Shown here: positions 9,246 to 26,947 of the stretch, one piece after another
How the letters are laid out: each line of letters starts with the position of its first letter
Numbering within the stretch: position 1 is the first letter of the stretch
From: an uncultured delta proteobacterium
GTDB taxonomy: Bacteria > Desulfobacterota > Binatia > DP-6
Direction: 5' to 3'
DNA length: 64,000 bases
Assembly (NCBI GenBank): GCA_963815115.1
Contig: CAWFFN010000007.1
Location: 448,001-512,000, forward strand
The notes under the pieces: generated by a model
What the model was told of the DNA's origin: nothing
The model's input: the letters and a program-made list of their open reading frames with translations, nothing else
Databases searched by the model: none
Position numbers and translations under genes: made by a program

Positions 9246-9339
9246 CGCCCGATCGGAGCACGATCGTCGCGGACGTACAAGGGAGCCGAATCGCTCGCTA
9301 CGGAAGCGCCGCGGGCTGGCAGGGCCAGGACGAAATATC

Positions 9340-9503
9340 CGAACCTCGCCGCCGAGGGCCCGCCGGACACCGTGGCGCGCTCGATCTCGGGCCCCCGGAC
9401 CGCGAGCGTGAATGATCGGTATCAGATCACGCAGGAGGCGGCGAGGAAGGCCGCGCTGGCGGCGATGGCGGCGCGGATCGCGGAGCAGGTCCGGGGTTCC
9501 TGA
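9340..9503 (+). pseudogene. C-terminal remnant of a tyrosine integrase
   Basis: PDTVARSISGPRTASVNDRYQITQEAARKAALAA aligns with PDVVARTITGHRTASMQSRYNITQESAQRAALAA of the integrase ending at 21038. Confidence 0.8.
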
Positions 9504-9512
9504 CGAAGAGCC

Positions 9513-9534
9513 GCATGGACACCCTGCATGGACA
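9513..9534 (+). repeat. tandem arm-type integrase site pair (older element)
   Basis: GCATGGACA x2 at 13-bp period, between the integrase stop and the tRNA promoter. Confidence 0.55.
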
Positions 9535-9566
9535 TCGGTTTGGAACGAACGACCTCGGCCCGGTGG

Positions 9567-9595
9567 TTGACCCCCGAAAGGCGAGCGGCTACAAG
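9567..9595 (+). promoter_or_regulatory. sigma70-type tRNA promoter, copy 1
   Basis: TTGACC-N17-TACAAG, homologous to 21104-21131. Confidence 0.65.
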
Positions 9596-9608
9596 CACTT
9601 CCGCTCTT

Positions 9609-9649
9609 GCGGGTGTAGCTCAGTTGGCTAGAGCGTGTGCTTGCCAAGC
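9609..9649 (+). pseudogene. 5' half of tRNA-Gly(GCC); attL of the left element
   Basis: 41 nt identical to 21146-21186; identity stops 2 nt after the anticodon loop. Confidence 0.93.
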
Positions 9650-9747
9650 TGCTGAGGACCCGACCCGTAGCCGTCTAGAACCAGTGATAGCGGGGGCTTG
9701 CGCGTGGGTGCGTAGGCCACAGCAGGCCCCCGCTCGGCTACCGATCT

Positions 9748-9765
9748 GTTGACGCGCGTTGACGC
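9748..9765 (+). repeat. arm-type integrase binding repeats, left end
   Basis: GTTGACGC-GC-GTTGACGC about 100 bp from the core. Confidence 0.7.
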
Positions 9766-9795
9766 AGGCTGAGACGGGCGGCGGCGCGAACCAGA

Positions 9796-10189
9796 TCAGA
9801 AGGGGTCATTCCCACCCATCCACTCCCGCAAGCCAGGGGTCAACGAGTGGTTCGTCTTGCAGGTACGGCAGTGGAAGGTGTGCCTCGCCGCGTCGGGGTT
9901 TCTCGGCACCAGACTCCATCGGTCGTTCGCGGCACAGGAAGGACAGAAGGGGTGCGGCTCCGGGTTGGTCGCCGACGAAACCCCACGGGATGCCATCGAG
10001 GGGTTCGACATCGTGCGGCGTGAGGCCCCGCTTGCGTTGGAGGGCCGCGACCTCTGCTGAGAGCGTCTCCAGCTGCTGCTTCTGCTGGTCGATCTGCTTC
10101 TGAAGCTCGGCGAGTGTCTCATGAACCTTGACCCACGGACGGAACCAATCCCAGCCGCGTTTCACCCAGGCCACTGGCAAGAAGTGCAT
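9796..10189 (-). pseudogene. coiled-coil plus zinc-ribbon protein, one frameshift near 9960
   Basis: LAELQKQIDQQKQQLETL in one frame continues as PEPHPFCPSC...FHCRTC in the other. Confidence 0.6.
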
Positions 10190-10194
10190 TGCCC

Positions 10195-10623
10195 TCAGTG
10201 TCTCGTCACTGCGATCCCGATCTGGACGAGCATCAGGACAACGACCAGTACGTTGAGCAGCCAGACCCGTCGACTCAGCTGATTGCCGGTCTCAACCGTG
10301 CCGTTCAACGCCTTCGCCCCATCCCGAAGAGCGCCGGTCAGCGCGTCGAGCTGGCTGGTGGCGTCCGATGCTCCCTGCTCCATGGCCTTCGTCAGACCGC
10401 CGACTTTGCTGCCCAAGTCCATTAGGTTCGCGGAGACGGCGTGCGTCGCGCGGTTCAACTCTGAAGCCACCATCACCGCGAGTCGTGCATCCAACTCGGT
10501 TCTTCTCTCCTGCCCGAACGCGGTGGCAGGGGGGACCTGGCCGAGTACCTGCCGGATGCTGTCGGGCATTTCGTAGTCGTCAGGCAGCTTCGGCGCCGGC
10601 GGACTCTGGCGGTTGTCCGGCAT
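10195..10623 (-). CDS. hypothetical coiled-coil protein with C-terminal transmembrane helix
   Basis: AAAGGGGG RBS; helical repeats; VWLLNVLVVVLMLVQIGIAV. Confidence 0.6.
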   Translation of the reverse strand: MPDNRQSPPAPKLPDDYEMPDSIRQVLGQVPPATAFGQERRTELDARLAVMVASELNRATHAVSANLMDLGSKVGGLTKAMEQGASDATSQLDALTGALRDGAKALNGTVETGNQLSRRVWLLNVLVVVLMLVQIGIAVTRH

Positions 10624-10946
10624 GATCGATCCCCCTTTCGGTTCCTCGCTGGTAACGGCTAGGGCATGGCGAAGCTATCCCCCGGTCCATCTTCCACAGG
10701 GGCCCTTCGTTTGAGGGTACCTCTGCCGCGACGACTGTCTGGTCGGGTCGCTCGCCGCCGCGCCGCCTCCACCGTGCCCGGATTGGCCGACTCGGCGGCG
10801 AGCGCCCAACACCAAAACGAAACGCGGCACGCTGGGGTTGACCCGGCCCGTATGAGTCGTCGACCCTTTGCCTGAGCCGTGGCACCCCCCGCGACTCAAA
10901 CCGGCTGACAGTAGCGACCGGCAGAAATGGTCTCACAATCTGGCGC

Positions 10947-11033
10947 GGACCCCTTCCTAGCCGTCTAGACCCAATCCTGGCGGGGTTCCGCCGCGTGGCG
11001 CGCTGGCCACGGCAGACCCCCGTCGGCTACCGA
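10947..11033 (+). repeat. diverged second copy of the attL-adjacent arm sequence (9656-9744)
   Basis: Shared blocks GGACC, TAGCCGTCTAGA, GGCCACrGCAG, TCGGCTACCGA in the same order. Confidence 0.7.
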
Positions 11034-11433
11034 GTCACGGCGGCAGACGCGCACAACATCCTGCTGTTGAGAACGATAACCATAGGTTGCGACTTCGGCT
11101 GATCGTAGCCATCGAGTGATGGGACTGATGCCGGCGACTGAGCGCGCGCCGCACCTCTGCCCGAGTTCTGCGAATCGACGAGTTCCTGCGCTTCCGAGTG
11201 AGGCTCGATCGCGCGCCCGACGCGGTGGTGCCATGCCAGGGCTCGGTCGGCGCCCAACCGTCGGGAGGCCAGACACAACGTCACGGCGAACGCGACACGG
11301 TGTACGGACCGCCGCGACGCAATGTCGGCCAGCCGCACAAGATGGCGACGAGCCAAGGTCGATGCCGTCGCGTGTTCCCTCCGGACGCGCTGTGGCGTCC
11401 CGACCAGTCGCTGTGGCAAGATGACACGCGCGT

Positions 11434-12403
11434 ATGTGGCCCTGGTCGACCGCCAGGATATTCGTGAGCTATCGGCGTGGCTCCGCTGGAGGATGGACGC
11501 CGCGGCTAGTCGACACGTTGAAGCGGCGCATCGCGTCGAAGAGGATCTTCGTGGACGTCGAAGGCATCGAGGCCGGCGACGATTTCGCGAAAGTCATCGA
11601 GCGCGAAGTTTCGAGGTCGTCGGTCGTGTTGGCGATCATCTCCCCCGGTTGGAGCTCCATCGCCGACGCACAGGGCCGTCGACGCCTAGAGGACCCAAAG
11701 GACCTCGTTCGGATCGAGATCGAGACAGCCCTCGCGCATAGCATTCGGCTCATTCCGGTCCTCGTCGGAGGATGTCCTCCTTTGGTGGCCACCGACCTGC
11801 CCGAGTCAGTGCAGGCCTTGGCGGAACGTCACGCCGTCGAGATCAGCGACAAGCGGTGGAACTATGACTGCAACATTCTCGCCAGCGAGCTGGCGAAGCT
11901 CGTTCCCTTCAGGGTATGGAACATCCGACGTGCTGTGACGGTCGGTGTTTGCGCGCTCGTGCTCTTGGCCCTCGCAAGCATCTACGATGACAAGTCGACC
12001 CAGCCCCCCGTATCGAGGCCGACAAACCAATCGCGCGACGCGTCGCAGCCGAGCTTGCCGCACCCTGCAGTTCCGCCACCATCCATTGGAATTGACGCAC
12101 GAGCTATTGACGCAGCCGCCCGTGCACGGGCCAATGACGCGGTCCGCCGTGCACAATCGGCAGCTGGGAGGGCAGCGGAGGCCGGGTATCTGCCTGAGCG
12201 CATTGGACACGGTGTCCGATTACGCCAAGAGCCTTGGACGCCAGTCCGTTGTCGACGCGGATGAGGCTGCCAGAAGCGCCGTCGCCGCAGCCGAGCAGGG
12301 CGGCCCCGACGCGCCCGGCGTTGCCGAGTCCGCAGCCACGAGAGCCGAACGCGACGCTGCGCGCGTCAACAGTCTGCTCGAGCAAGAGATGGATCGACGC
12401 TAA
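11434..12403 (+). CDS. TIR_2 domain + transmembrane helix + helical C-terminus (frameshift near 12190)
   Basis: IFVSYRR, IFVDVEGIEAGDDF, VVLAIISPGW, DLVRIEIETAL, RLIPVLV; TM AVTVGVCALVLLALA. Confidence 0.85.
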
Positions 12404-12800
12404 CGCCTGTTCGATCAAGAGACAGGTCGAAGGTCTCTCCGCTGAGTTCCGGCGGTTCGTCGCTAGCCCTTCCCTAGCCCACCCCTAGCCCAGGATCATC
12501 ACCATGCCCAATCGGCGGGACCGCAACCGCATCGACTCGGATATCCGTCTCCCACGACGCCGTTCTCGTCGTCATCGAGTTGCCATCAGACCGTCGATGC
12601 TGATCCCGCTGGTTGCCCGAGTTGCTCGGCATCCCGGAGACTGAGGCGTTGCAGCTGCTCGATGACCTGGAGGCTGTGGGGCTGCCTCGTGAGCGCGACG
12701 GGGCCGGTGCAGTCGAGAATGCGTGCCAGCGATGCCGCGAAACTCTGGGTCGGCGGTTAACGTTGCTCGTTCGGTGGTCGGCCGGTAGGCTCAGACTCCA

Positions 12801-13685
12801 GTGCCCACGACGCCACCGCGTGACCTGCTCGACCGCGACTTGAGCAAGGCCCAGATGCGGGAGGCCATCGAGGTTGCCGTTCCGCTGCTCCAAGAAGTCG
12901 TGAACCATGGTGTGGCGGTACTGGCCCGTTGCCTTCCCGTGGTAAAGGACGAGGAACACCACCTCGCCATCCTTCTACTGTACCGGCATTTCCTGGAGAT
13001 GGTCGACGGCGTGGAAGTGCTCCTGGGGGCGCCAGCCAGCAGCGCGGCTCAACTGTTACTTCGGAGCGCCTTCGAGTTCATCCGCCATCAAGTACATGAT
13101 CGACGCAGACACGCAGCGCCGCGCCTTTGCTTACCTGGCTGCCCAGGCACAGCGCGAGATAGCGGCGCTGTGCACAGTGACGAAGAAGTACCCCGACCTT
13201 GTTGAGGCGAAGCACGTCGCCGAGAACATGATGACGTTCCAGGACCGGCTCGATCGACCAGGATGGCGGGAGGCGAACGAGGAGTTGCTGCGACTCGCCA
13301 GGAACGCGCTCGAAGAACGGGAAGGTTCGCACTAGTCCACTGGTTTTCCGCGTGGGGCGGTCCAGGTACGCTCGCGGACCTCGCCGGGCGACTCGGCACG
13401 GCGAAGGCGAGGGAGTACGACATACTCTACCGTCAGTGGTCAGCCGTCGTCCATGCCGGCGATATCGAGAGCAACCTGAAGAGAGGGCCCAGTGAGAGCA
13501 TGGTCATCCGGCGCCTACGTCTGTCTGTCGACTTCGGCGGGATAGTAGACTTCGCAGTCAACTTCGCCTACGAGACGGCCCGCGATGTACTTTCCCTCTA
13601 CCGCCCAGGCGAAGAGCGCGCGCTTGCCGAGTGGTTCCTTCGCGAGGTTCGTGACCGACGCAACCGGCTCACTGGCACGGCCTGA
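12801..13685 (+). pseudogene. DUF5677-like protein, two frameshifts
   Basis: LLLRSAFE (RxxxE) and YRQWSAVVH (YxxxSxxxH) motifs spread over three consecutive frames. Confidence 0.65.
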
Positions 13686-14384
13686 TTGGTTACGCAGGGA
13701 GATTCCCGGAGGGATCCGCGCCGACTCGACGCGCACCGGAACCCTCTGACCGCCGCCGCGTGGCTGTACGGGGATCCTCAGATCCAACCAGGGGCATCCT
13801 CGTCGGGGGGATGGACGTGCCACCCACGCCTCAGCGGGCCGCAGCGCCCGCCTGGCGCGCGCTGGGGGCCGTGTTGCGCGCGGTGCTTGCGTGTCTACGT
13901 CAGCGGGACCTCGGCCTCGACCTCGGCGTAGTCTCGCGCCCGAAGCGCCGCATGCGGCCGTACGGCCGGGCGGCAGATGCACCCGGCCCGGCGCCTCCTC
14001 GTCGGGGCCAGGACGCCGGGGACGTGCACGGCACGACCACCACCACGGTGGCGCCGTGACGGCCATCATCGCCGCCCCGCTGATCGACCCGCGCTATGCG
14101 CTGGTGATCGCGGTCGCCCTCTTCGCCTGTGCCATGGCGGCGATCGGGGCCGAGCGAAAAAATATCAGCGTTCTACATGCGGGGCGCCCGCGTACCCGGC
14201 TATCTTGAGTCGTAGACGTGCGGGATGGAAGAAGACCGGGCCCATGGGCCCTGACGGGCAGTAGGGTGATGGGAGATAAGCCTCCCCTTGACAGAATGAC
14301 AAGAAATTCCTTCCACTACGGCAAGGCCGGGTTTGTTAAGAGCGCACATGCCAAGGTCGACCGGGCCCTCACGGGTCGGGCGGG

Positions 14385-14441
14385 CTGGACGTCGACGACA
14401 ACCTGGACGTCGACAACAGCCCTGGACGTCGACCGACAACC
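14385..14441 (+). repeat. three tandem 18-19 bp repeats (iteron-like)
   Basis: CTGGACGTCGAC at 14385, 14403 and 14422. Confidence 0.7.
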
Positions 14442-14951
14442 CACCTCCGTCATCGAGCGCCGGTTGGAACCGGACGCCCGTCAGGAATGCCCCTGGTACG
14501 CACACAGACGGCCGGAGACGCGCTTGCCCGTACGGGCCGGATTCGTCGCCTGGCCGTTGGCCCAGGAGGGCCGCAAATGGCCCCGGTGCTAGACAGGATC
14601 TCTCCTGCCGTAGCAGATACTGCATGCTGGCTGGGTGCTGTAGAGGCCTCGTGTAGCCCTGCGCGGCCGTAGGCCGGGTCATCCGTCCAGCCTGGGCGTG
14701 GGAAAGGCCGAAAACTGCCCGCGCATCGCGAAAGGGAATGCGTGAGGGGCCAGCCGCCATCGGGACCGAACTTCGAGAACCGACCCGGACCCCCACCCCC
14801 GGCCGTACGGGCCGTGGTTCCGGTGAGCTGCCTTGCTGCGGTAGTACCTTCTCCGCATCGTGTGCATCTGCAAGAATTCTTCTTGCCAGGTATACCCCGT
14901 TTGGGAGGCCGGAGCTTTACATTAGACGCTAGTCTGTGGTAAACGGAGGGC

Positions 14952-15693
14952 ATGACAACACGGTGAAAGCGATAGGGTACTGCGCGTCTAGACGACGCGC
15001 AGGGCAGCAACGGCGGCGGCCTCGCTGCACAACGCGAAGCGATCACGCGGCTAGCGGACGCACGCGGATGGCAGCTGGTAGAGGTGGTCGAGGACGTCGG
15101 CGTGTAGGGCAGCGTGCGCTGGCGATCGCGCGCCGGGGCACGGGCGCTGGCACTGCTCCGGGATGGGGGCGCTGACGTGCTGGTGGTCAGCAAGCTAGAT
15201 CGCTTGTCGAGGTCTGCCACGACCTCGCCGGGCTGCTCGAAGAGAAGGCGAGACGTCGGAGGATAACGGAAGCGCCGGGGTGAGTACACCAGCTGGCGCC
15301 TGGTGTCGGCGACCTCGGCGAACTTGATATGACCACGCCCGTGGGGGAACTGGTCGCGAACGTCCTCGGCGCGCCAGCCGGATGGAACGGCGCATGATCG
15401 GCGTGAGAACGAGCGAAGCCTACGGGCAAGCAGCAACGCGCCGGGCTGCGTCTGGGCAGTGCACGGCGATGGCAGACGAGACGCGGGCGCTCGTGTTGTC
15501 GCTCTACGCGAAGCACCGGGGCTGGTCGGCGTGGGCCTCGGCGCTCAACGAGCGCGAGGTACGACGGCGAGCGGGGGCGTGCGGTGGTACCGAGCAGCGT
15601 GCGCAGCGTCGTGCTGGCGGCCAGCGCGACGTGCAGCGTTGCGGCCAGCACCTCGGCGCCGTCGGGACGACTGGCGCGGCTACATGCGCGTGA
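14952..15693 (+). pseudogene. serine recombinase/resolvase, multiply frameshifted
   Basis: GGAGGG RBS; KAIGY, LAAQREAI, VLVVSKLDRLSRS, DMTTPVGELVANVLG, ERRMIGVRT across frames. Confidence 0.8.
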
Positions 15694-16492
15694 CCCTTGC
15701 TCGGTGTCTCGGTCGCGGGTAGCGCGTGGGTCTCTGCCTCCTCTGTAGTGGCACTACGGCTCATGGCTCATGACCCATTCGCTCTACGGGCGCGTCGCTA
15801 AGTGCCTGATAACGCTTGCCTGTGACCCACCGTTCTCGCTGGCAAACCCCCACGGCTCAATAGGCTGGGATGTGCGGCGAACGCGCGTTCTGAAGACACA
15901 TAGGAGGGTCCACCATCGGCCTAGATTTCTCGGTCCATGGTCCGCTGACTTCGAGGTCTGGTTGACAAGGTGCTTTGGCGGCGATCTGGAGGCGTCGGTC
16001 GGCGTAGTCGAGGTGGCGCACCAACTGTCCGCTCGTCCGCGAGAGGACAGTGTCCGGCGACCCGTGGAAGACGAGAACGCTCGCGACGGGCAGGTGGAAG
16101 CGGAGGTGGACATGAGGACGAGAGCGGGGCGCGGGTTTCTCCCTGACGTCCGATGTGGCTCTGGTAGCTCAGGTCTCGATCAGTACGGTGCTGAACGCAG
16201 AACGACCGGGGCGAATTGATCCCGGTCGGGTCGAATACTACCAAAAGGGCTTCGCATTTTCGATCGGGTCGAGGTGCGCTGCTGGACGGCGGCACGGGCC
16301 ACTGGTGGTGAGGGGGTGTGATGGCGATGTGGAACGACAACGAACCGACGACGCGACCTGGCGGCGCTCCCGGCCGAGGCTGAGCAACTCAAGGCCGAGA
16401 GGCCCATTGGCGAACTGTATGGCAGGCCGAGGAGCGCGCCCGCAAGCAGGCGCGAGGCGGCGGCTTGTCGGGCAGCGGAACTGGCGACGCGC

Positions 16493-17492
16493 GTGGAGCG
16501 ACTGCGCGACACAGCGATGCCGCTCCTGCCGCACCTCACGGCGGACCAACTCACCGGCACATTCGAGCCGGTGTTTGTGCAGCTGCTCGATCAGTTGGAG
16601 GAAGACGCCGCCTGGGACGTTGATACCGACGCCGTCGGCGAGCTGCGATGGGAACTCGGGGGCGCGTACAAGCGGCGCCTGAAGGTGGTGCAGGACGCGG
16701 ACCAGAAGCGCCTGAAGGTGGTGCAGGACGCGGCACGCGTCGCGGACTTGGAGGCCGCCATCGCGCGGTTCAGCGCACATGTGTTCGCACCCGATGCCCA
16801 TCGGCAGCCGTGGTGGTGCACGTTGGTCTTCGAGGCCCGGTACCTCAAAGACGATTGCGGTGCGCTCCCCGTGGAGCAGGACCGCACACGGTTGCTGCAG
16901 GCACTGCAGCCGGCCAGGCTGCGGGTCGAGGAGCAGGAGCAGCGCGCCAAGCAGGACGCCGCAGCGGTCGAGCTGGAGGCGTGGCGCACCCGCGCCGTGA
17001 CCTGCTCATGGATCCCGGACCTATGCTTCCTCGATGCGGTGCCGTGCGACTACAAGGCTGCCTGGCGCCAGATCGATGATCTGCCCGCTGCGCAGGTGCT
17101 CCGGGGCTTGCGTGACTGGAGCGTGTGGAAGTCGTTCCCGCTCGACGCCTTCAGGGTGGTGCGTGACTACATGAACCAGGCTATCCGCCGGCCAGCGGAT
17201 CATCGTCGCTGGGACTGGCCCGCTGACGCCGAGACCGGGGCGTTCGATGCGCAGGGCCGGCCGTTCCCGCACAAGTTCGGATTTCTGGCCGTGCTGCGGG
17301 CGGTGGCATGGCAGCGCGGGATCGGCACCGCCGAGGCGGCGTGGAAATGGGACCAACGACGCCGGGCGAAGGTGAAGGTCGCCGCCATCTGCGGCGGCGT
17401 GTGCCGCGCCTGCGGTGCGCCGGAGGCGGATGCCGTCGAGCCCTTGGAGTTAAACCACCTCCTGTACGGCCAAGGTGGTCAGAAGCGAAAGG
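16493..17492 (+). pseudogene. phage-type protein with C-terminal HNH-like start, interrupted by IS3 (true start probably upstream)
   Basis: CGGVCRACG...LELNHLLY immediately before the IS inverted repeat; internal 33-nt tandem duplication at 16675-16733. Confidence 0.5.
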
Positions 17493-18754: not shown

Positions 18755-19000
18755 GTCAAGACGGACAAGTTGCGGAGCGACTCATCACGCATGCCGCGAC
18801 ATGGGGGACCGCTGTGGTGGGTCGAGCTGCTGTGCAGCGATGCATGCCATCAGACGGAGGCCAACGGGCCGGTGTCGTGTGGGGGCGACGCTCGATATGT
18901 GCGGACCGGCGAGCCACGCGGGTGATGACTTCCCGAGGGCTTGGCTTGCACGGTGCCTGTCGCGGCGCGCACGGCCCGGCACCGGCCCGTAGGGGCGGTT

Positions 19001-19089
19001 AGGCGTCAGGCATGAGGTTGTACTTGCAAGCAAACTGGGTAGTCAGGATGGAGTACCCTGACTATAACCCCCTCGCAATCCTGACGCCT
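19001..19089. mobile_element. 89-bp MITE-like inverted-repeat element
   Basis: Terminal AGGCGTCAGG/CCTGACGCCT; internal TAGTCAGG...CCTGACTA hairpin; lower GC than flanks. Confidence 0.6.
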
Positions 19090-19171
19090 CAGTGAACATG
19101 CCGAAAGGACGCGGGAATTGACCATCTGGGCACATCTGCGCTTCCGGTCCACCTCGGACTGCCTGACGTGC

Positions 19172-19330
19172 TCACATGCCATAGCACGTTGTGTCCGCGC
19201 GCGGGTCGATCGCCGAATGCATGTACTTCGACTCGATGTCCGAGTTGATGGACTCCGACTCGGTCGGCTCGACCGACGGCCAACCGCCCGCGCTGAGCCT
19301 TGGCGCGGAGCGCGTGAAGTCCGGCCACGG
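19172..19330 (-). pseudogene. possible XRE-type HTH repressor remnant
   Basis: LHALRAK...ADRVGVHQ plus SDIESK in an adjacent frame; divergent from xis/int. Confidence 0.3.
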
Positions 19331-19383
19331 GACTGACGCCTGCCGAAATTCCTGCAGGCCACACACGCGATCCCGGCCACGGG

Positions 19384-19419
19384 GTCGCCTCGCAGATGCG
19401 TCGTCAGGCGGCTTTTTTT
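19384..19419 (+). terminator. intrinsic terminator/attenuator upstream of xis-int
   Basis: GTCGCCT...AGGCGGC stem followed by TTTTTTT. Confidence 0.55.
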
Positions 19420-19462
19420 GCGGGGCGTAGCGAAACCGGCGACTACCCTATCCTCGTAGGTA

Positions 19463-19838
19463 GTGAAGACCGAACGAATAGGCAGCCGCCTGCGCCGCTG
19501 CCGACCGTCGCGGACATCGACCACTTGCCGCTGGCCGAGTTGCCGGCGTTGCCAGCGCGATGTCGGCGCTGCTCGCGTACATCACCCTGCGGCTGCGGTC
19601 GTTGGTGACCGACCACGGCGACGACTGCGACGTGTTCGACGTCGTGGAGGCCGCGCGTCGCATCGGCTGCAGCGAGGACGTGCTCCGCGAGCACGGCCAG
19701 ACGTGGGGCGTCGCGCTCGTGTTGACGCGGGACAAGAACGGCAGGCCGACCCGCGTGGTCTACCCTCGCGCCTTGGTGCGGGCGTACCTCGAACGGCGTC
19801 TGCCGAACATGCCGGCGACAACGTCGGCAGCCGCGTGA
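19463..19838 (+). CDS. excisionase-like HTH protein (5' part frameshifted)
   Basis: FDVVEAARRIGCSEDVLRE HTH, directly upstream of the integrase. Confidence 0.6.
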
Positions 19839-19890
19839 TAGCTCGGCGGCACGGGCGTCGAGACCGACGGCCCGCAGAAGGAGGAACGAC

Positions 19891-21038
19891 GTGATGGCGA
19901 AGAGATCGAAGCTGCCGCCGGGCCTGTACCGGCGGCGGAAGCGCGACGGCACCCCCGGAGAGGTGTGGTGGTTCTGGTACCGGCCGCCGGGGAGCAAGCG
20001 CGCGGTGCAGATGAGCACGCGCACGGTCGACCTCGTCGAGGCGGAGCACTTCATGCACCGCAAGCTGGCCGAGGATACGCAGGCCCGCGCCGCGCGGATC
20101 GTTACGGCCTCGGTCACGGTGGCCGACGCGCTGGCGCTGCTCCGGAAGCACCGCGACGCGCGTGGTACCGCGATCCACCGCGCTCTCTACGCGGGCTTGC
20201 AGCACGCACTGGGGCATCTACTCGTCGGTGATCTGCGCCCCGTCCACCTCGATGACCTGTGCGCCAGGTGGCGGGCCGTGGCATCGAGTACCCGGACCGC
20301 GACCTGAAGAGGAACCCGCAGCACTCCGTCAGCGGGACGACGTGCAACCACGGCATGCGGATGCTCCGTCTGGCCCTGCGGCTCGCGTCCGTCAAGCTGG
20401 CGGTGCCGTTGCCGCCCGGCCTCGGCGACCCGCTGGCGTACCCGAAGTTCTCGGAGCCGATCACCGGCCAGTACATCCCGCCGGGTGACTTCTACGCCAT
20501 CCTGAGCCACATCGACGCGGGCCCGAAGCAGGCCCTGACCGAGGTTGCATACCTGACCGGAGTCCGGAAGGGCCAACTCCGGAAGACCGAGATACGGAAC
20601 GTCGCGTGGAGCGTGGCACCGTGACGGCGTTGGTGTGGGACTTCGGCAAGGTGAAGAACCGGCGCGAGCACGTCGTTGCCTGGCAGGCAGGGCGCAGGAG
20701 ATCATGCAGGAGTTGTGGAAGGGCCGGCGCCCCGGCTGCCCGATCTTCCACCTCGACGGCCGGTCGGTCGGGGAGCTGCGGAGCGAGTGGGAGCGCGCCT
20801 GCACGGCCGCAGGCTTCGCCGTGGGCCGGAAGGCACACGGCTTCGTCTTCCACGACACGAGGCGCTGCGGCGACCACCAACATGTCGGCCACCGGGCACG
20901 CCGGACGTCGTCGCGCGGACCATCACGGGGCACCGGACGGCGTCGATGCAGTCGCGCTACAACATCACCCAGGAGAGCGCCCAGCGGGCAGCACTCGCGG
21001 CCGTCGACCGCCTGATCAAGGCCGGGCGGGGTGCCTGA
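19891..21038 (+). pseudogene. tyrosine recombinase/integrase, about 4 frameshifts
   Basis: AAGGAGG RBS; N-terminal arm-binding-like domain; AYLTGVRKGQL, VKNR, FHDTRR, TGHRTASMQSRY catalytic motifs. Confidence 0.9.
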
Positions 21039-21050
21039 GATGCCCGGTTT

Positions 21051-21072
21051 GTTGACGCACGCGTTGACGCAC
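21051..21072 (+). repeat. arm-type integrase binding repeats, right end
   Basis: GTTGACGCAC x2 at 12-bp period. Confidence 0.7.
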
Positions 21073-21103
21073 GGGGTGGAACGGACGACTTTGGCGCTCC
21101 AGC

Positions 21104-21131
21104 TTGACCCCGCAAAGGCGAGCAGTACAAG
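21104..21131 (+). promoter_or_regulatory. element-borne sigma70-type promoter for tRNA-Gly
   Basis: TTGACC-N16-TACAAG, ending 14 nt before the tRNA. Confidence 0.6.
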
Positions 21132-21145
21132 CACTTCTCGCTCTT

Positions 21146-21219
21146 GCGGGTGTAGCTCAGTTGGCTAGAGCGTGTGCTTGCCAAGCACAAGGTCGTCGGT
21201 TCGACCCCGATCACCCGCT
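21146..21219 (+). tRNA. tRNA-Gly(GCC), CCA not encoded
   Basis: Cloverleaf GCGGGTG/CACCCGC, GCTC/GAGC, TGTGC-TTGCCAA-GCACA, GTCGG-TTCGACC-CCGAT, discriminator T. Confidence 0.97.
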
Positions 21220-21400
21220 CTTACGAAGTCACGGACTTAGGTGGTTGGACCAGTGCCAGGGACCTCCGGGGTTCCTCTTCGCCATCGAGTTCGCTTCGAT
21301 GATTGGCTGAGTCATGAATCTGAGCGTGCCGGGAGGCGGATCGGTCTCGCCGTCGCGGCCCGCGAGCGGCGCGGCACCGTGGCAGATCGGGCGGCGGCAC

Positions 21401-22439
21401 TCACAGGACGCACCTCACCTGCGGCGGGAGCAGCTGGCGGCGCACCAGGTAGAGGTTCGCCAGCGCGAAGAGGCTGAAGGCCCGCGCGAGGTTCTTGGCG
21501 AGGCCGCGATACCGGACCTTGGCAAATCCCCACAGGCGCTTCACCACGTGGAACGGATGCTCGCCGCGGGCCCGGGTCCGCGACCGGGCCCGATTGATCG
21601 CCCGCCACCGCGGGGTGAGCGGCCGGTGCGGACCGGCGGCCCGCCGATTCACCCGATACCGCACGCCCTGGGCTTCGAAGACCTGCCGATCTGCTTCCTT
21701 CCAGTACGCCTGGTCGCCGTAAAGGACGCGTTCCGCACCGTGCAGCAGCTGCGGGAGCTGGGTGATGTCGGCAACCGCGGCATGCGTCGCGGTCACGCGG
21801 TGGACGCGCCCTTCGGATCGGTCCCGACATGCAGCTTCATCCCGAAATGCCACGCGTTCCCTTTCCGCGTCTGCTTCATCTCGGGATCGCGCGCCTGGGC
21901 GGCATTCTTCGTCGAGCTCGGGGCGGTGATGATGGTCGCGTCGACGATCGTCCCGCTCTGCAGCAACAGCCGCTTCGCGGTGAGCAGCTCCTTGACCGCG
22001 GCGAAGAGCGCGGCGGTCAGCCGGTGCTGCTCCAGCAGGTGACGGAAGCGCAGGATCGTCGTCTCGTCCGGGACCACGTCGTCCCCGAGCTCCACCCGGG
22101 CGAACCGCCGCATGGCCTCGCTGTCGTAGAGCGCGTCCTCCGCCTGCGGGTCGGAGAGATTGAACCACTGCTGCAGGAAGTAGATCCGGAGCATCTTCTC
22201 GAGCCCCAGCGGCTGCCGGCCGCGGCCGGCCTTCGGGTAGTAGGGTTCGATCACCGCGAGCAGCTGCGCCCAGGGGATCACGGCGTCCATCTCGGCGAGG
22301 AACTGCTCACGCCGGGTCACCTTGCCCTTCTGGCTCCACGCGATCCCAGCGAACGTCCGCTGCTCACCCATCCCCAACCTCCCGCGCTCGCTCGATACGT
22401 CCCGCTTCTACCCCATCGAGCGACTTGCGCAGAGCTTCC
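21401..22439 (-). mobile_element. IS5-family element; transposase frameshifted near 21810, one end not found
   Basis: TRREQFLAEMD, MLRIYFLQQWFNLSDP, PDETTILRFRH, GTIVDATII, WHFGMKLHVG, EHPFHVVK; IR GGAAGCTCTGCGCAAG next to CTAA. Confidence 0.9.
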
Positions 22440-22484
22440 CTAACTGCAGTCGTGCATCGCCCGCGCGGCGACCGCGTCCCGGGG

Positions 22485-22517
22485 TGGGCACAATCTGGGC
22501 ACAATCTGGGCACAGTC
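22485..22517 (+). repeat. three 11-bp tandem repeats (arm-type site-like)
   Basis: TGGGCACAATC, TGGGCACAATC, TGGGCACAGTC. Confidence 0.75.
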
Positions 22518-22619
22518 GATGCCGTTACGGAAGGGCAGCGGGCTGGTAGATGCGCCGGGCAGATGGCTGGTAGGTACGAAGGACGAATACGCCCTTCGTG
22601 CGTCCTAATCCTCTCCTAA

Positions 22620-22816
22620 TCTGCAGCTCTGCCGTCCCGACGGCGCCCGGCTCGAACGAGTGCTCCTGCACCGGCGGTCCTGCGCCGTGCCAGATCGCCG
22701 GCATCGGGCCCGACGGTCCGACGTGCGGCGGGACCTGTCCGGAGGGACAGACGTGCCAGGTCGTCGATACCTTTCCGATCCCAGGGTGCCCGCTCCATCT
22801 CTGCGGCTGCCAGTAG
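22620..22816 (+). pseudogene. orphan 3' fragment of a Cys-rich secreted protein, paralogous to 23450-23653
   Basis: CSCTGGPAPC...TCGGTCPEGQTCQ...CGCQ stop; no start or RBS. Confidence 0.7.
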
Positions 22817-22909
22817 CGCCGCGTCGGTCGCGCCGACCAGCGCGGCCGCTGGCGCTCGCGGCTCGACCTCTTGACAGATTCCGATCGCGAGGCGCAGAGA
22901 GGGGTCGCC

Positions 22910-23653
22910 ATGTCGGCGCGCTCGGGCTTCCCGGCGGCGATGTTGATCGTGGCGGTCGCCGTCGCGGTGGCGGAGGCCGACACCCCGCCGGCGGATCACC
23001 TCCAGTGCTACGGCGTGCGGCGCGATCCACTCCAGCTGCGGGCGCTCGTCGACCTCTTCTCGAGCCAGTACGGGCTCGCCCCCGGCTGCAGGATCCGGAA
23101 GAGCGCCGTCGAGTTCTGCGTTCCCGCGAGCAAGACCGTGCGCGAGGCGCAGGACGGCGGCACGCGCCCGCCCACGCCGATCACGCCGCTCCCCGGCGTC
23201 GGCGCGCCCGCGGCCGGCGACTACGTCTGCTACAAGGTGTCCTGTCCGGACGAGCAGCTGCCAAAGGAGCAGCCGGTGACGGACCAGTTCGGCGGCCGGA
23301 CGCTGGGGCGATTGCGGACGACGAAGCTCTGCACGCCGGCGGTGAAGGGCACGACGACCAGCAGCACCACGACCACCACCACCAGGTGCACTCAGCCCAC
23401 CACGACAACGAATCCGCCGTGCGGCGAGGTCGGCTGCTTCGGCTGGTGCGCGAACGCGCAGTTCTGCGTGTCGACCGGCCCGACCGCGTCGGACTGCGCG
23501 TGCACGGGCGGCCCCCGCCCGTGCGCGTTCACCGGCCCCGGTCCGGACGGCGGCCTGACGTGCGGGGGTACATGTCCGGAGGGGCAGACGTGCCAGCCGA
23601 TCGACACGGATCCGTCGCCGGATTGCGTCTTCCTGTTCTGCGGGTGCCAGTAG
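22910..23653 (+). CDS. secreted Cys-rich protein with Thr linker
   Basis: Signal peptide; DHLQCY, FCVPASK, DYVCYKVSC, VTDQFG, KLCTPA; TTTSSTTTTTT; Cys-rich tail. Confidence 0.8.
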   Translation: MSARSGFPAAMLIVAVAVAVAEADTPPADHLQCYGVRRDPLQLRALVDLFSSQYGLAPGCRIRKSAVEFCVPASKTVREAQDGGTRPPTPITPLPGVGAPAAGDYVCYKVSCPDEQLPKEQPVTDQFGGRTLGRLRTTKLCTPAVKGTTTSSTTTTTTRCTQPTTTTNPPCGEVGCFGWCANAQFCVSTGPTASDCACTGGPRPCAFTGPGPDGGLTCGGTCPEGQTCQPIDTDPSPDCVFLFCGCQ

Positions 23654-23660
23654 CCGCCGC

Positions 23661-23790
23661 TCAGCCGCCGACCAGCGCGGCGGCGCGCTCGAAGCACCAG
23701 AACGCGACGAGCGAGCCGATCGCGTAGATCGGCACGAGCCGCGCCCACCCGGGCGGCGCGGCGACGGCGCGACGGAACGCGCAGGGGCGC
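23661..23790 (-). pseudogene. orphan C-terminal fragment of a HupE/UreJ-family membrane protein
   Basis: PPGWARLVPIYAIGSLVAFWCFER; upstream sequence is unrelated phage-like DNA. Confidence 0.6.
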
Positions 23791-23830
23791 AGCTGTGACG
23801 GCAGCAGGTGTTCGTACTCGAACTCGACGC

Positions 23831-24152
23831 TCACCCGTGGACCTCGATCAACGCGAACGAGGTTGTCGCCGATACCGCCGCGCTGGTCTCGATCCGGACC
23901 TGGGAGGATGGCGGATACACGACCACTCCCCACGCGCCGTTCGTGCCCGAGAACATCGCCTGCGACGTCACCGAACTCCAGGGATCGAGATAACGGAGCC
24001 AGGCGCCACCAATGATCGGCTGGAACGCGGCATACCACGTGTTCGCTGCCGCCGAGCTGACGCCAACCAGCAGCGCGCGGTCAGTCGCTGCTAGGGTGAA
24101 CGCCGACGACACGGTCTGTCCGGCGACGACAGTGCCGTAGAAAGACCGCCAT
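23831..24152 (-). CDS. small beta-rich phage-like protein (frameshift near the start)
   Basis: ATG at 24152 just after the upstream stop; YGTVVAGQTVSSAFTL...QVRIETSAAVSATTSFALIEVHG. Confidence 0.5.
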
Positions 24153-24153
24153 G

Positions 24154-24318
24154 TCAGGGCTCGATGATCTTGCCGAGGAGGACGCGCTGCGCCACCAGGG
24201 CATCGCGGATCGCCGTGAGCCCGGCGTCGGGGGTGCGCTTGAGCACGCCGTCGAGGCGGCTGATCGCCGTCGAGAGATAGTCGCGCGCTTCCCGGAGTTC
24301 CACGTCCCAGTCCGCCAT
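24154..24318 (-). CDS. small phage-like hypothetical protein
   Basis: MADWDVELREARDYLSTAISRL...; tightly packed operon. Confidence 0.5.
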   Translation of the reverse strand: MADWDVELREARDYLSTAISRLDGVLKRTPDAGLTAIRDALVAQRVLLGKIIEP

Positions 24319-24320
24319 GT

Positions 24321-24509
24321 TCAACCCGCCTTCGCGATCGCAGTCGCCGCCAGCGCGTCCAGCACGCGACGGGCGCGATGCGCCAAGCCTTCGGCCTTCT
24401 GGCTCTCGATGCTGCCGCTGCGCCGCAGCGCGTCCGCGGCGAGCATGTCGACGCTGTCGAGCGTGAGTCGCAGGGCTTCGTAGAGATCGAGATCGGTGTT
24501 CATGTTCAT
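24321..24509 (-). CDS. small phage-like hypothetical protein
   Basis: GGAGG RBS; MNMNTDLDLYEALRLTL; ATGA overlap with the upstream gene. Confidence 0.55.
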   Translation of the reverse strand: MNMNTDLDLYEALRLTLDSVDMLAADALRRSGSIESQKAEGLAHRARRVLDALAATAIAKAG

Positions 24510-24849
24510 GCCGCCACCTCCCGCTGCGCCAGCCGCTTTTCGGCCCACTGCTGCAGGTAGACCTGGCCTGCTCTAGCGTCATGTTCGCCGCGAGGATCTC
24601 GTTGGCCAGGTCCTGTGGCACGATGAGGGTCGTCACGAAGCGGAACTCGTGCCACGGCTTCGTCTCGTCCTCGCCGAAGCTGCTCGCCCACGGCCGGATG
24701 TGCACCTTGCTCTGCGTTTCCCACAACGTTCCCCGCTGCAGCGTCGCCCGCGCCGTCTCCAGGTCCTTGGCGATGTAGTAGAGGCCGCAGTGTTGATCCG
24801 CCGGCACTGTCGCCAGCGCCGCTTGCACCAGTTGCTGCGCGCGGCTCAT
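24506..24849 (-). pseudogene. phage-like hypothetical protein, one frameshift
   Basis: MSRAQQLVQAAL...LEQAR continues as YLQQWAEKRLAQREVAA in another frame. Confidence 0.45.
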
Positions 24850-25144
24850 CGGGAGGCCAACGGATGCCCGGTGCGAACCATAATTTCGCCGATGCGCAGC
24901 CGCTCGCTGTAACGCGCGGCGAGAGGTTGTGCTTCCGGCCGATCGCAACGAGGGCTTCCTCGAACTCGTCCGCGGTACTGTGTCGCTGTTCGCTCGCGGC
25001 CACGTGGCGCACCAGAGATTGCTTCAGCGGATCGGCCGCCACGTCCTCGGCGCTGAAGTTGTACCTGGCCCGCACGGCGTCCCGCCGCTCGGCCAGCGTG
25101 GTACGCGCCGGCTTCGGCACCCGCAGTTGATCGAGATCAACGGG

Positions 25145-26131
25145 GACGTCGTGCACGGCGACGGGCAGACCGTCCTGGTCCTCGAGGTGCGCGATCGCCA
25201 GCGCGAAGCTGTCTTGGCTGCCGCCGCTGGGGTCGACAAAGCCGTGGTAGGTCAGGTCTCGGAGCGGCCGGAGCCCTTGCCGCCCAGGAACCACGCAACC
25301 CTCGAGCACCTCGCGATCGACGAACCCCGCGACGTCGGTTCTGAACTGCGCCCCGTACTCGGCCGCGGCGGCGACCGGGTCCGCCTCGTACGCGGCCTCG
25401 ATGATCCGCGCCGGCAGCACCGGGTTCATGGTCGCCGTGGGACTGCACCACACGAGCACCGGATCGTCCTCGCGCCCGTAATGGCTCCGGAACGCCTGCC
25501 ACAACGCCCCGCGCCGGCTGTAGGGCGAGCTGATGCAGACCAATCTGGCGCCGGGGAGCGTGCTCAGCCCCGGGCGGACTGCGGCCAGCACCTCGGTATC
25601 CGGCTCGGTGGTGCTCTCGGAGCGCCAGTAGGCCAGCTCGTCGCAGATCACGCAGGCGAAGCTGTAGCCGCGCGTCCCCCTGGCCGATGCCGTCGTCACC
25701 TCGACGCGCGCCCGGCCGGTGAACTCGATGCTCTCGGCCGACCGCCGCACCACCTGCGCCGCAAGTGGCGGACACGCGTCCACCAACCCCTCGACGTACT
25801 GCAGCACGTTGCGACTCTGCGGTCGGTCGCTGGCGACGATGGCGATCGTTGCCCACTCGCCCGGCGCCAGGTGCGGGCGCCAATCCCGCAGCACCGCCGC
25901 CTCGACGGCGAGCGCTGCCGCAAGCCGACTCTTGCCACCGCGTCGGCCGACGATCGCGTACGCCTCCACCACTGGCGCCGTCGGAAGCCGCTGGCGTCCA
26001 GTACAGCGCTGGAACAGCTCGAGGGCTTCTCCGTGCACGGGACGGCCGTCCAGGGCCGCCTTGAACGTGCGCCAGGGCCGCCAGGACGCCGCGCGGAAGT
26101 CCGGGAAGAGCCGGAGGACGTCTGGCGTCAC
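25145..26131 (-). pseudogene. terminase large subunit, nuclease domain truncated and fused to unrelated sequence
   Basis: Walker A VGRRGGKS, Walker B VICDELAYW, coupling motif ISSP, nuclease start FVDPSGGSQDSFALAIAH. Confidence 0.8.
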
Positions 26132-26527
26132 GCCTCGCCCTCCTGCGCCTCTGCCTCCTGGGCGCGGATGAACTCGGGCAGCGACGGCACCGGCTGCGCG
26201 CGACGCTGGAGTCCGATGTCGCACAGCAGCGATTGCAGGTGCGCCTCGGCCCGGCGCACGTGTTCGACGACCGGCCACTCACGCCGATGACGCCGATCGA
26301 CCTGACAGCGCATGGTCGCGATGTAGGCGTTAGTCCTGGTCACGCGCATGGCAGCAGCGACGGCCAGGTCGATCAGGATGCCCTTCGCCGTCGACACCTG
26401 CTCGGCACCGCCGCAGTCGGCCATCAGCTGCTCGCGCAGCAGTGCCATCGCTTTCCTGTTCCTCGGGCGTGAGCGTCTTCACGTAGAAGCTCGAGCGCCT
26501 GTACGGTCGCTTTGCCGGCGTATCCAT
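26128..26527 (-). pseudogene. terminase small subunit-like protein, frameshift near 26450
   Basis: Small helical protein ending IGLQRRAQPVPSLPEFI; GTGA overlap with terL. Confidence 0.55.
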
Positions 26528-26566
26528 GCCCGACCTTGTCCTCGAGGAAGAGCCTATCAGGATCGC

Positions 26567-26735
26567 GGGGACACCGCAGGGGACACTGACCGGAAACCCG
26601 CGCCCAGCATGGACTTTTCGGCGGACATGTGCTCGCCGAGCACAGGCGCTGTGCCTCGAGCACGTCTTGGCGGCAATGCGCCGCTCGACGCGATCAGCGC
26701 AGTGTCGCACAGCATGGTGTCCCCTGAGTGTCCCC
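26567..26735. repeat. two inverted pairs of arm-type sites
   Basis: GGGGACAC at 26567 and 26579; GTGTCCCC at 26717 and 26728. Confidence 0.65.
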
Positions 26736-26842
26736 GACACCACGCCATCGCAGGACAATGGACGAGCAGGGGCGTGCAAGAGGATACTTGAGACGACGGA
26801 CCTTCCGGTGCTGTGCGCTGTCCTGGTTCCCTGGGCCGCAGC

Positions 26843-26888
26843 GCTTGCCAAGCACAAGGTCGTCGGTTCGACCCCGATCACCCGCTCT
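26843..26888 (+). pseudogene. 3' half of tRNA-Gly(GCC); attR
   Basis: Identical to 21176-21221. Confidence 0.93.
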
Positions 26889-26947
26889 CAAGAAATCACG
26901 CACTTGGAAGCGCCCGACGCGTGTCGGCCTGCCTTTGCGGGTCGCCT

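Follow-up and report, generated by a model that had tools for sequence, protein, structure and literature searches.

How does a tRNA gene come to stand between two detached halves of itself? In the window analysed here (the whole stretch of DNA, 64,000 nucleotides long), tRNA-Gly(GCC) is present in three pieces on the same strand:

9609 to 9649, plus strand: displaced 5′ half, nucleotides 1–41 of tRNA-Gly(GCC) (BLAST 100%, sequence reading)
21146 to 21219, plus strand: intact tRNA-Gly(GCC) gene (ARAGORN, Rfam)
26843 to 26888, plus strand: displaced 3′ half, nucleotides 31–74 (26843–26886) and two more matching bases to 26888

These pieces, noticed in a first-pass annotation, were recovered by ARAGORN, Rfam, BLAST, and direct reading. 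The whole gene is the single tRNA called by ARAGORN in the window (at 21146–21220) and matches the Rfam tRNA family at 21146–21219 with 68 bits; Gly-GCC accounts for one of the 60 tRNA genes that ARAGORN calls across the 12 contigs of the 6.9-Mb assembly, which makes this copy the sole whole tRNA-Gly(GCC) gene there. The 5′ half stops two bases past the anticodon loop, and the 3′ half, whose nucleotides 31–74 match at 100% in a BLAST search of the gene against the whole assembly, begins two bases ahead of it. As annotated, the halves therefore overlap only in an 11-bp anticodon-centred core, GCTTGCCAAGC, which is the loop plus 2 bp on each side. No tRNA-Gly fragment other than these two halves was found within the window; elsewhere in the assembly, BLAST finds a decayed piece resembling a 3′ half (C5:1220399–1220452, 87%). 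Similarity between the copies continues past the tRNA, both upstream (9356–9649 against 20894–21186, 73%) and downstream (21176–21238 against 26843–26905, 94%). Because the three copies do not differ at all in their tRNA portions (100% identity), this sequence alone does not tell where each half came from.

We consider it probable that a single tRNA-Gly(GCC) anticodon loop was the recombination target of two separate integrative elements, one from either side. The left one is delimited by the 5′ half and the whole gene, and its features are as follows:

9650 to 21186, plus strand: proposed left 5′-restoring integrative element, 11.5 kb
9748 to 9765, plus strand: tandem GTTGACGC pair, putative P′ arm-type site, 99 nt past the core
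11425 to 12261, plus strand: TIR-domain open reading frame, cargo of the element (Pfam PF13676, E 6e-11)
17492 to 18751, minus strand: IS3-family insertion sequence (rve + HTH_21), inside the element
19891 to 21035, plus strand: probable tyrosine integrase gene of the element (tblastn with six integrases, three-frame reading)
21051 to 21070, plus strand: tandem GTTGACGC pair, putative P arm-type site, between the integrase stop and the tRNA promoter
21104 to 21131, plus strand: promoter-like block TTGACC-16-TACAAG of the working gene, read from the sequence

This block has about 65% G+C, compared with about 70% in its flanks. The integrase gene lies on the same strand as the tRNA and reads towards the whole gene, its stop codon falling 110 nt before it. 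Its identification comes from tblastn (23–53% identity, in separate pieces) with six integrases of the same bacterial family; the alignments cover its N-terminal, core, and catalytic parts, and motifs R, K, HxxR, H, and Y can be made out, with stretches including AYLTGVRKGQL, FHDTRR, and GH..SRY. A PF00589 profile search of the window gave no match, the integrase pieces included. Three-frame reading reveals four frame changes, all of them −1, near 20300, 20620, 20680, and 20880. The IS3 copy within the same block differs from three identical genomic copies by 30 one-base gaps, 28 of which are C in C runs, indicating that the consensus within the left block is error-prone, and the frame breaks of the integrase may accordingly represent either decay or consensus errors; if they are consensus errors, some of the population may still carry an active left element.

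Exact tandem GTTGACGC pairs occur only three times in the 6.9-Mb assembly, and those listed above are candidate arm sites of the left-element integrase. The TTGACC...TACAAG block, which a promoter consensus scan did not call at 21104–21131, is conserved upstream of tRNA-Gly in other genera and is the predicted tRNA promoter. The right end of the left element would thus have supplied both the promoter and nucleotides 1–41 of the working tRNA. The crossover lies in the anticodon loop, as identity stops 2 bp past the loop, and the corresponding fragments in comparator genomes end at nucleotide 39.

The same layout is found in all three comparators with an open integrase frame. A tRNA-Lys gene of genome G006 has a 5′ fragment (nucleotides 1–39) 10.2 kb upstream of the whole gene, and in G018 a tRNA-Lys gene (G018:C7) and a tRNA-Arg gene (G018:C4) have 5′ fragments 11.9 kb and 96.7 kb upstream, respectively; in each of the three, a tandem repeat particular to that locus lies ahead of the whole gene and again 108–142 nt past the 5′ fragment. 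The tRNA-Arg locus, which belongs to another genus, also has a 3′ fragment (nucleotides 30–75) 12.2 kb downstream, adjoined by a second, P4-type integrase whose element bears its own GTTGCA-type repeat on both sides. With one integrase per side, this locus indicates that a three-piece layout made by two elements occurs elsewhere. In G001, a genome of the same genus, the 5′ half is followed by a junction related to the left one of the window, and the whole gene is accompanied by a homologous integrase remnant, broken at a different place from the window integrase; the 3′ half of tRNA-Gly was not found in this 95% complete assembly.

The DNA to the left of the displaced 5′ half suggests that the 5′ side has a longer history:

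3405 to 4085, plus strand: pgsA-like CDP-alcohol phosphatidyltransferase gene (Pfam PF01066), the last conserved gene on the left
4089 to 9338, no strand assigned: variable DNA from pgsA to the displaced 5′ half, with TetR, MAPEG, methyltransferase, and baeRF genes
9339 to 9503, plus strand: older tyrosine integrase stub, the last ~55 codons (...SGPRTASVNDRYQITQ...) (tblastx, tblastn)
9514 to 9534, plus strand: tandem CATGGACA pair, putative arm-type site of an older element, between the stub and the promoter block
9567 to 9595, plus strand: promoter-like block TTGACC-17-TACAAG upstream of the 5′ half, read from the sequence

Among the 17 relatives' loci examined by tblastn and tRNA positions, seven have tRNA-Gly starting 52–77 nt past pgsA, and G003 carries a whole tRNA-Gly gene with an L-type promoter and no fragment. 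Judged from this gene order, the ancestral locus would be pgsA, a spacer of 52–77 nt, and the tRNA, and relatives retain it as an empty site; for this strain, no circular or empty-site form was found. The variable DNA at 4089–9338 is missing at this site in the relatives with the short spacer and is probably the remainder of an older 5′-side element. The stub is homologous to the integrase C-terminus at 20877–21035 (tblastn, 56% over 45 aa), and the CATGGACA pair sits in the same position as the repeats of the left element and the comparators, although no partner of it remains in the window. As before, the promoter consensus scan made no call at the block (9567–9595). Because the displaced 5′ half has an integrase stub of its own, the 5′ side appears to have been replaced at least twice. 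The earlier suggestion that the array grows in both directions thus holds for the 5′ side, whereas for the 3′ side the only sign of such growth comes from the tandem 3′ halves of a relative, G012.

On the other side of the whole gene lies a shorter block, followed by strain-specific DNA:

21187 to 26842, no strand assigned: proposed right 3′-restoring element remnant, 5.7 kb, without integrase
21298 to 22445, minus strand: IS5-like transposase region (DDE_Tnp_1 + DUF772, two frames), 78 nt past the tRNA
24509 to 26278, minus strand: terminase large subunit (PHROG 2, E 3e-18)
26567 to 26735, no strand assigned: GGGGACAC repeats, two direct and two inverted, 108–276 nt left of the 3′ half
26889 to 40700, no strand assigned: more strain-specific DNA, its distal end lacking a tRNA fragment

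Beyond this DNA, synteny with relatives returns at about 40723 (G003), 41898 (G002), and 42525 (G013). The right block is flanked by the intact gene and a co-oriented downstream 3′ fragment, as in a usual island, but no integrase was found inside it, either by PF00589 or as a credible tblastn match with the six integrases; one tblastn match (E 0.006) was rejected, as it falls inside the terminase open reading frame. The IS5-like region occupies the spot where convergent integrases stand in relatives (G012, G006). Four of the five GGGGACAC copies in the window lie at 26567–26735 and are predicted to be arm sites of the right element, unlike the GTTGACGC of the left one; no matching repeat was found on the tRNA-proximal side of the right element. 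In G012, a right-type end lies beside the tandem 3′ halves, and a terminase homologue next to one of them is oriented to it as in the window; the two halves are mid-contig and far from the whole gene, which is not the simple picture. By tblastx, a terminase homologue also lies inside the 5′-side island of G006. The tRNA-Leu locus of G006 provides a usual-polarity member of the same integrase clade, whose 3′ fragment starts at nucleotide 31, as in the window. The layout and these relatives suggest that the right element was 3′-restoring and that the part of the working tRNA past the core comes from it.

Taken together, the integrase that reads into the whole tRNA, the GTTGACGC tandem repeat that precedes the whole gene and recurs shortly past the 5′ half, the different repeat beside the 3′ half, the left type alone in G001, the right-type end in G012, and the three-piece tRNA-Arg of G018 favour the model of the first-pass annotation in which a left 5′-restoring and a right 3′-restoring element use the same crossover core. 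We infer the following order of events. An older element of the 5′-restoring kind, whose integrase survives as the 55-codon stub, would have delivered the 5′ half that is now displaced. The left element, with an attachment site ordered as integrase gene, arm pair, tRNA promoter, tRNA nucleotides 1–41, core, about 100 nt, and second arm pair, would then have pushed this promoter and 5′ half to 9609–9649 and fused the resident 3′ part to the promoter and 5′ half that it brought. The right element, of the usual 3′-restoring kind, would have joined its own 3′ part to the gene, pushed the prior 3′ half to 26843–26888, and later lost its integrase. With two elements entering from opposite sides, the working gene would consist of element DNA to either side of the loop and would also be transcribed from such DNA.

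The succession of 5′ half, short core, whole gene, short core, and 3′ half is also the layout expected of tRNA-dependent lysogeny, as in actinobacteriophages, and the first-pass annotation accordingly offered a second model, in which one 17.2-kb element (9650–26842) with an 11-bp core split a resident gene, left it unrepaired, and carries a complete spare tRNA-Gly. Such a mechanism, with a common core of ~10 bp and a phage tRNA complementing the disrupted host gene, is described in the available text of PMC10865867, and the sharing of only the core by the two halves, the whole gene of the same isotype between them, and the terminase gene inside the block would all fit it. We nevertheless regard it as improbable, as the outer ends carry different repeats (GGGGACAC by the 3′ half, GTTGACGC after the 5′ half, the latter matching the repeat upstream of the whole gene), so that the arm sites of one integrase do not flank a short-core attP, and the integrase abuts the whole tRNA rather than the joint of the outer ends. 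The outer junctions share 11 bp in this reading, whereas 41–44 bp are common to each whole-gene junction if there are two elements. Relatives also separate the parts: G001 has the 5′-side junction and the whole gene without a 3′ half, although both host-gene halves should be present wherever such an element is; G012 has a right-type end with no 5′ half found; and of three relatives with the integrase–tRNA arrangement and a 5′ fragment, two lack a 3′ fragment, while that of G018:C4 has its own integrase. The near-dyad across the hypothetical joint of the outer ends (left of the 3′ half and after the 5′ half), cited earlier in support of a single element, is real but weak, being equalled by 5% of random flank pairs from the window.

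It is very unlikely that the three pieces do not stand together in this order in one chromosome, the left block being a minor-strain or chimeric long-read path spliced in at a 48-bp repeat. The gaps of the IS3 copy do bear a consensus-error signature, and the uniform −1 direction of the integrase frame changes points the same way; yet in G001, an independent assembly, the same 5′ half leads into a related junction and a homologous integrase stands ahead of the whole gene, the different break in that integrase fits real decay, and the parts of the window form a coherent architecture whose arm repeats match and are spaced as expected. Duplication of the locus, segmental or mediated by an insertion sequence, with later deletions leaving two halves by chance, is strongly disfavoured: the region does hold two insertion sequences (17492–18751 and 21298–22445), but neither lies at the edge of a repeat, the anticodon loop is no more than 2 bp from the end of each fragment, the upstream homology is that of an integrase C-terminus, and the upstream flanks of the copies are only 73% alike, which argues against a recent duplication.

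The two-element reading reveals no new mechanism, as the upstream (5′-restoring) kind of entry is rare but already catalogued. Its interest is that mobile DNA can supply the whole of an essential single-copy tRNA gene, and its promoter too, with the gene at no point lost, a case backed by the comparators. The reversed polarity of tRNA integration, otherwise rare, is common in this bacterial family, with five co-oriented integrase–tRNA pairs among the 25 genomes searched, plus that of the window. For annotation, tRNA halves flanking a gene on both sides are a warning of two islands rather than one, and the conserved layout (integrase, arm pair, promoter, 5′ part, core, arm pair) helps to assign ends to elements after the integrase has decayed. 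More tentatively, and as a conjecture that we would not yet favour, one anticodon-loop integrase clade in this soil family may switch readily between 3′- and 5′-restoring polarity, such that mirror-image elements repeatedly rebuild the same tRNA from both sides, leaving a promoter and both halves of non-chromosomal descent, and elements carry tRNA promoters between genomes.

Among known systems, the left element resembles the Islander class of tRNA-gene genomic islands (Hudson, Lau and Williams 2015, PMC4383910) in which attP is centred on the anticodon and a 5′ tDNA fragment is displaced. The Islander rules, in the text available, permit both 5′- and 3′-fragment configurations, and Table 1 of that work gives a 5′ fragment for 159 islands, a 3′ fragment for 3760, and an anticodon-centred site for 2083. 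Zhao and Williams 2002 (J Bacteriol 184:859), as cited in PMC6563490, gave the first description of the reversed orientation. Like those 5′-fragment islands, the window has a co-oriented 5′ fragment (nucleotides 1–41, 100%) upstream of intact tDNA on the same strand, a length (11.5 kb) within the 2–200 kb range, a crossover in the anticodon loop, and a probable tyrosine integrase inside, by the site; unlike them, its integrase is broken or mis-assembled, an insertion sequence has landed in the island, and the displaced fragment carries an older integrase stub. The right block resembles the usual 3′-restoring tRNA islands and prophages, known also in tandem arrays (Williams 2002, as cited in PMC9897764 and PMC6563490; the "tandems" of Islander), in lying between a whole gene and a co-oriented 3′ fragment from the anticodon loop and in having a terminase gene, but differs in having no integrase. 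No paper describing an island array on both sides of one tRNA gene was found in the text accessible to a literature search; the usual tandem arrays extend on one side, whereas the array in the window extends on both. With the tRNA-dependent lysogeny of actinobacteriophages (Guerrero-Bustamante and Hatfull 2024, PMC10865867), the window shares a short anticodon-region core, a host gene split in two, and inserted DNA that contains a complete gene of that isotype. In that system, as far as the available text describes it, the short-core attP has the integrase and its arm sites around it and the tRNA travels as cargo of its own, whereas in the window it is the whole tRNA that the integrase and one arm pair adjoin, and the repeats of the two outer ends differ.

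The tRNA-Gly(GCC) locus carries one tRNA in three pieces, a real and well-delimited feature that the first-pass annotation had described and that ARAGORN, Rfam, direct reading and BLAST against the whole assembly all bear out. ARAGORN calls a single tRNA in the window, tRNA-Gly(GCC) at 21146-21220, which is confirmed by Rfam at 68 bits; an Rfam scan of 4000-42000 returned nothing besides this tRNA. The pieces are as follows.

9609-9649: 5′ half, tRNA nt 1-41 (direct reading and BLAST of the gene against the whole assembly, 100%)
21146-21219: whole tRNA-Gly gene (direct reading and BLAST against the whole assembly)
26843-26886: 3′ half, tRNA nt 31-74 (direct reading and BLAST against the whole assembly, 100%)

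The two halves overlap only in GCTTGCCAAGC, that is, the anticodon loop and two bases on each side, and the window holds no further tRNA-Gly fragments. A count of other tRNA-Gly(GCC) genes, which the first-pass annotation had called for, found none: the gene is the only one with this anticodon among the 60 tRNA genes of the 12-contig, 6.9-Mb assembly. Elsewhere in the genome, a decayed fragment resembling the tRNA-Gly 3′ half (87%) lies at C5:1220399-1220452, 6 kb from a 299-aa integrase (C5:1226727-1227623), with no whole tRNA-Gly adjoining and with a left flank resembling that of a 3′ half in the relative G012.

The window corresponds to positions 448001-512000 of contig C7, and tRNA-Gly loci were compared across 16 relatives (17 loci). 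In 7 of them a pgsA-like gene (window 3405-4085) is followed 52-77 nt on by tRNA-Gly, which is the ancestral state. Conserved DNA on the right restarts only at about window position 40723 (relative G003), 41898 (G002) or 42525 (G013), and thus the strain-specific stretch that includes the three pieces measures some 36 kb. On either side of the gene the locus is a hot spot; in ten relatives' loci, a Pfam search of 105 frames from the pgsA-tRNA interval identified ordinary cargo and no integrase. Among the window's own flanking genes, a baeRF gene (bacterial archaeo-eukaryotic release factor domain, family 11/8, E 3e-57; 8124-9265, minus strand) abuts an old integrase stub and has a homologue at an unrelated locus in G002, and a PEMT/ICMT-like methyltransferase gene (26957-27513) directly follows the 3′ half. 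The latter has a 91% paralogue at C8:797497-798054, which adjoins a weak integrase C-terminal fragment (C8:797207-797308, 19 bits).

Profile searches of all stop-to-stop frames of at least 90 aa in 9000-27600 (Pfam, 147 frames; PHROGs, 62 frames) yielded no integrase or recombinase, and none of the 23 matches of a six-frame PF00589 search of the whole genome falls in the window. The window integrase was detected by tblastn alone, the lead being a chance nucleotide match to an integrase at C5:1226834-1226873. In the left block (9650-21186), 19891-21035 on the plus strand aligns with six integrases of the same bacterial family, over the N-terminal domain (MAKRSKLPPGLYRR...), the catalytic-arginine box (AYLTGVRKGQL), KNRREHVV, FHDTRR and GHRTASMQSRY. 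The gene reads into the whole tRNA, its stop lies 110 nt upstream of it, and its frame shifts four times, each by -1. An ORF directly upstream (19560-19838) has no family match and, from its position, is at a guess an excisionase; blastn of 9650-17491 against phage and plasmid collections gave no match.

Compared with three identical genome copies, the IS3 copy at 17492-18751 shows 19 mismatches and 30 one-base gaps, of which 28 are a C within C runs; a truly diverged copy (C7:695470, same contig as the window) has 80 mismatches and 3 gaps. This pattern is a consensus-error signature within the left block; therefore the four integrase frame changes could be errors, and the frame breaks in 9650-21186 may not be biological. 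Real decay of the integrase is nevertheless favoured by its orthologue in G001, a relative of the same genus, which is broken too, at a different place. Among the consensus-quality tests only the IS3 comparison was informative, as C-run versus G-run counts and a GC3 phase plot did not distinguish the left block from well-assembled flanks.

A tandem GTTGACGC pair lies at 21051-21070, between the integrase stop and a promoter-like block (TTGACC...TACAAG, 21104-21131), and a second at 9748-9765, 99 nt past the 5′ half; the whole assembly contains only three exact tandem pairs of this kind. To the left of the 3′ half is another repeat, GGGGACAC, in two direct and two inverted copies at 26567-26735, which are four of its five copies in the window. 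We infer that these repeats are integrase arm sites. If so, the attP of the left element would run integrase, arm pair, promoter, nt 1-41, core, about 100 nt and arm pair; this order would mean that 21186, rather than 26842, had been joined to 9650. A consensus promoter scan made no call upstream of either tRNA copy. Two further GTGGACGC/GTTGACGC tandem-repeat blocks flank a tRNA-Glu(TTC)-like 5′ fragment at C7:690533-690890 (fetched locus L032:14534-14888), in what looks like the attachment site of a related 5′-side element targeting another tRNA; a TacA antitoxin and GNAT toxin pair lies immediately upstream.

The displaced 5′ half was likewise delivered by an integrase-bearing element of reversed polarity, since decayed. 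It is preceded by a stub of a related integrase comprising the final ~55 codons (9339-9503, ...SGPRTASVNDRYQITQ...), and the sequences upstream of the two tRNA copies (9356-9649 and 20894-21186) are 73% alike, a similarity that is coding. The stub is also kept in G001, and G003 retains only the ~95 nt directly before the gene. Two copies of CATGGACA at 9514-9534 occupy the place equivalent to the upstream arm pair of the left element; a second arm pair of the older element (two copies of ATGGACA) was sought but not found. The module upstream of tRNA-Gly recurs before tRNA-Met(CAT) at C7:703591-703900 (minus strand), where an integrase C-terminal stub (…SGHKTDSAHRRYVITQ…) is accompanied by a tandem GGACACC repeat.

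The right block begins at the whole gene's core, reaches 26842 and, besides several frames without family assignment, contains two recognizable features.

21298-22445: IS5-like region, 78 nt past the tRNA
24509-26278: terminase large subunit (PHROG 2, E 3e-18)

No integrase is left in this block by six-frame PF00589 search or tblastn; from the layout and the relatives, the block appears formerly to have restored the 3′ part of the tRNA. Just past the IS5-like region, at 22483-22515, an 11-mer occurs three times in tandem (TGGGCACAATC; third copy TGGGCACAGTC), giving the right element candidate arm sites or iterons.

Comparators came from 25 genomes of the family, searched with a 64-aa catalytic piece; 11 matched, and ARAGORN was run on 15 fetched loci. 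Co-oriented integrase-tRNA pairs occur in G001 (Gly), G003 (Val, a remnant), G018:C7 (Lys), G006:C9 (Lys) and G018:C4 (Arg), and convergent pairs, the usual arrangement, at seven other tRNAs, including the tRNA-Gly of G012. The three reversed pairs whose integrase frame is open all have an upstream 5′ fragment (nt 1-39, 100%), which is 10.2 kb away in G006 (integrase at L051:10032-11387), 11.9 kb away in G018:C7 and 96.7 kb away in G018:C4. Each also has a tandem repeat specific to its element (CTCCACAGC in G006, CTATGCAGCG and TGCACAGG in the two of G018) at two places, 58-72 nt before the whole gene and 108-142 nt past the fragment. At the tRNA-Arg(ACG) of G018:C4 (L050, 142000-159000; L053) there is additionally a 3′ fragment (nt 30-75) 12.2 kb downstream, the interval containing cement, capsid, portal, terminase and DUF3631 genes and a second, P4-type integrase, with a GTTGCA-type repeat flanking this downstream element on both sides. 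On both sides of this tRNA, then, the integrase frame is open and each element has its own matching arm repeats: this is the three-piece layout of the window, built by two elements that each retain their integrase. The ~12-kb tRNA-integrated elements at L052 (G018:C7:151500-165500) and L050:3424-9446 carry a terminase, a lambda-type portal, a capsid-protease fusion and a cement protein, with no tail genes seen, and look like capsid-forming phage satellites.

In an integrase tree of 12 rows, which include a mis-cut 79-aa piece, a single clade (support 95/98) unites two usual- and two reversed-polarity integrases, so polarity is not a deep split; the remaining tree is without resolution. At a tRNA-Leu of G006, with usual polarity and from the same clade, the 3′ fragment begins at nt 31, like that of the window.

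The first-pass annotation had favoured two elements, one on each side of the gene, and this is supported by the integrase position, the arm repeats, the comparators and the occurrence of the two end types apart. The alternative of a single element (9650-26842), which would have used the 11-bp core and carried a spare tRNA, has a published precedent in tRNA-dependent lysogeny (PMC10865867), but it fails on several counts: the repeats at its two outer ends differ, the integrase adjoins the whole gene, and G001 and G012 each hold one end type without the other. In G001, a 5′ half and a related junction lie at the end of contig C11, contig C18 has the whole gene and a homologous integrase remnant close to its end, and a 3′ half is absent throughout the 95%-complete assembly. 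In G012, the whole tRNA-Gly lies next to pgsA, followed by a convergent integrase, and a pair of 3′ halves, separated by 1.4 kb, is found midway along another, 954-kb contig (L018, G012:C32:697210-698760), one with an end like that left of the window's 3′ half, the other with a terminase homologue ~1 kb away whose relative orientation matches that in the window; the distance of these halves from the whole gene suggests that G012 either is rearranged or has an assembly fault here. The near-dyad at the outer ends, offered earlier as some support for a single element, does exist but is weak: 5% of random flank pairs equal it.

Parts of the region were found in only three soil-metagenome runs, all from one study, as short contigs: identical pieces cover the flanks and the right block, and most of 9992-20615 is without cover, which proves nothing. 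These contigs gave no spanning evidence and no excision circle or empty site of this strain. One X2 contig links 9601 to 21137; it reads CACTTC followed directly by CTCGCTCTT, as in G003 and G001, and therefore most likely represents the uninterrupted gene of a relative rather than an excision product. Exact-pattern scans for the junction right after the 5′ half returned 0 matches in metagenome_contigs and 0 in genome_contigs; those for the junction left of the 3′ half returned 6 and 2, respectively, all by chance, because none continues into a tRNA part.

Both kinds of element are already catalogued, as Islander (PMC4383910) counts 5′ fragments in 159 islands and 3′ fragments in 3760, with 2083 sites centred on the anticodon. 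Our literature search found no description of one tDNA flanked by both kinds, an arrangement that is the expected sum of two known events. Compared with tRNA-dependent lysogeny as PMC10865867 describes it, the window differs in that its integrase abuts the whole tRNA and its outer ends carry different repeats.
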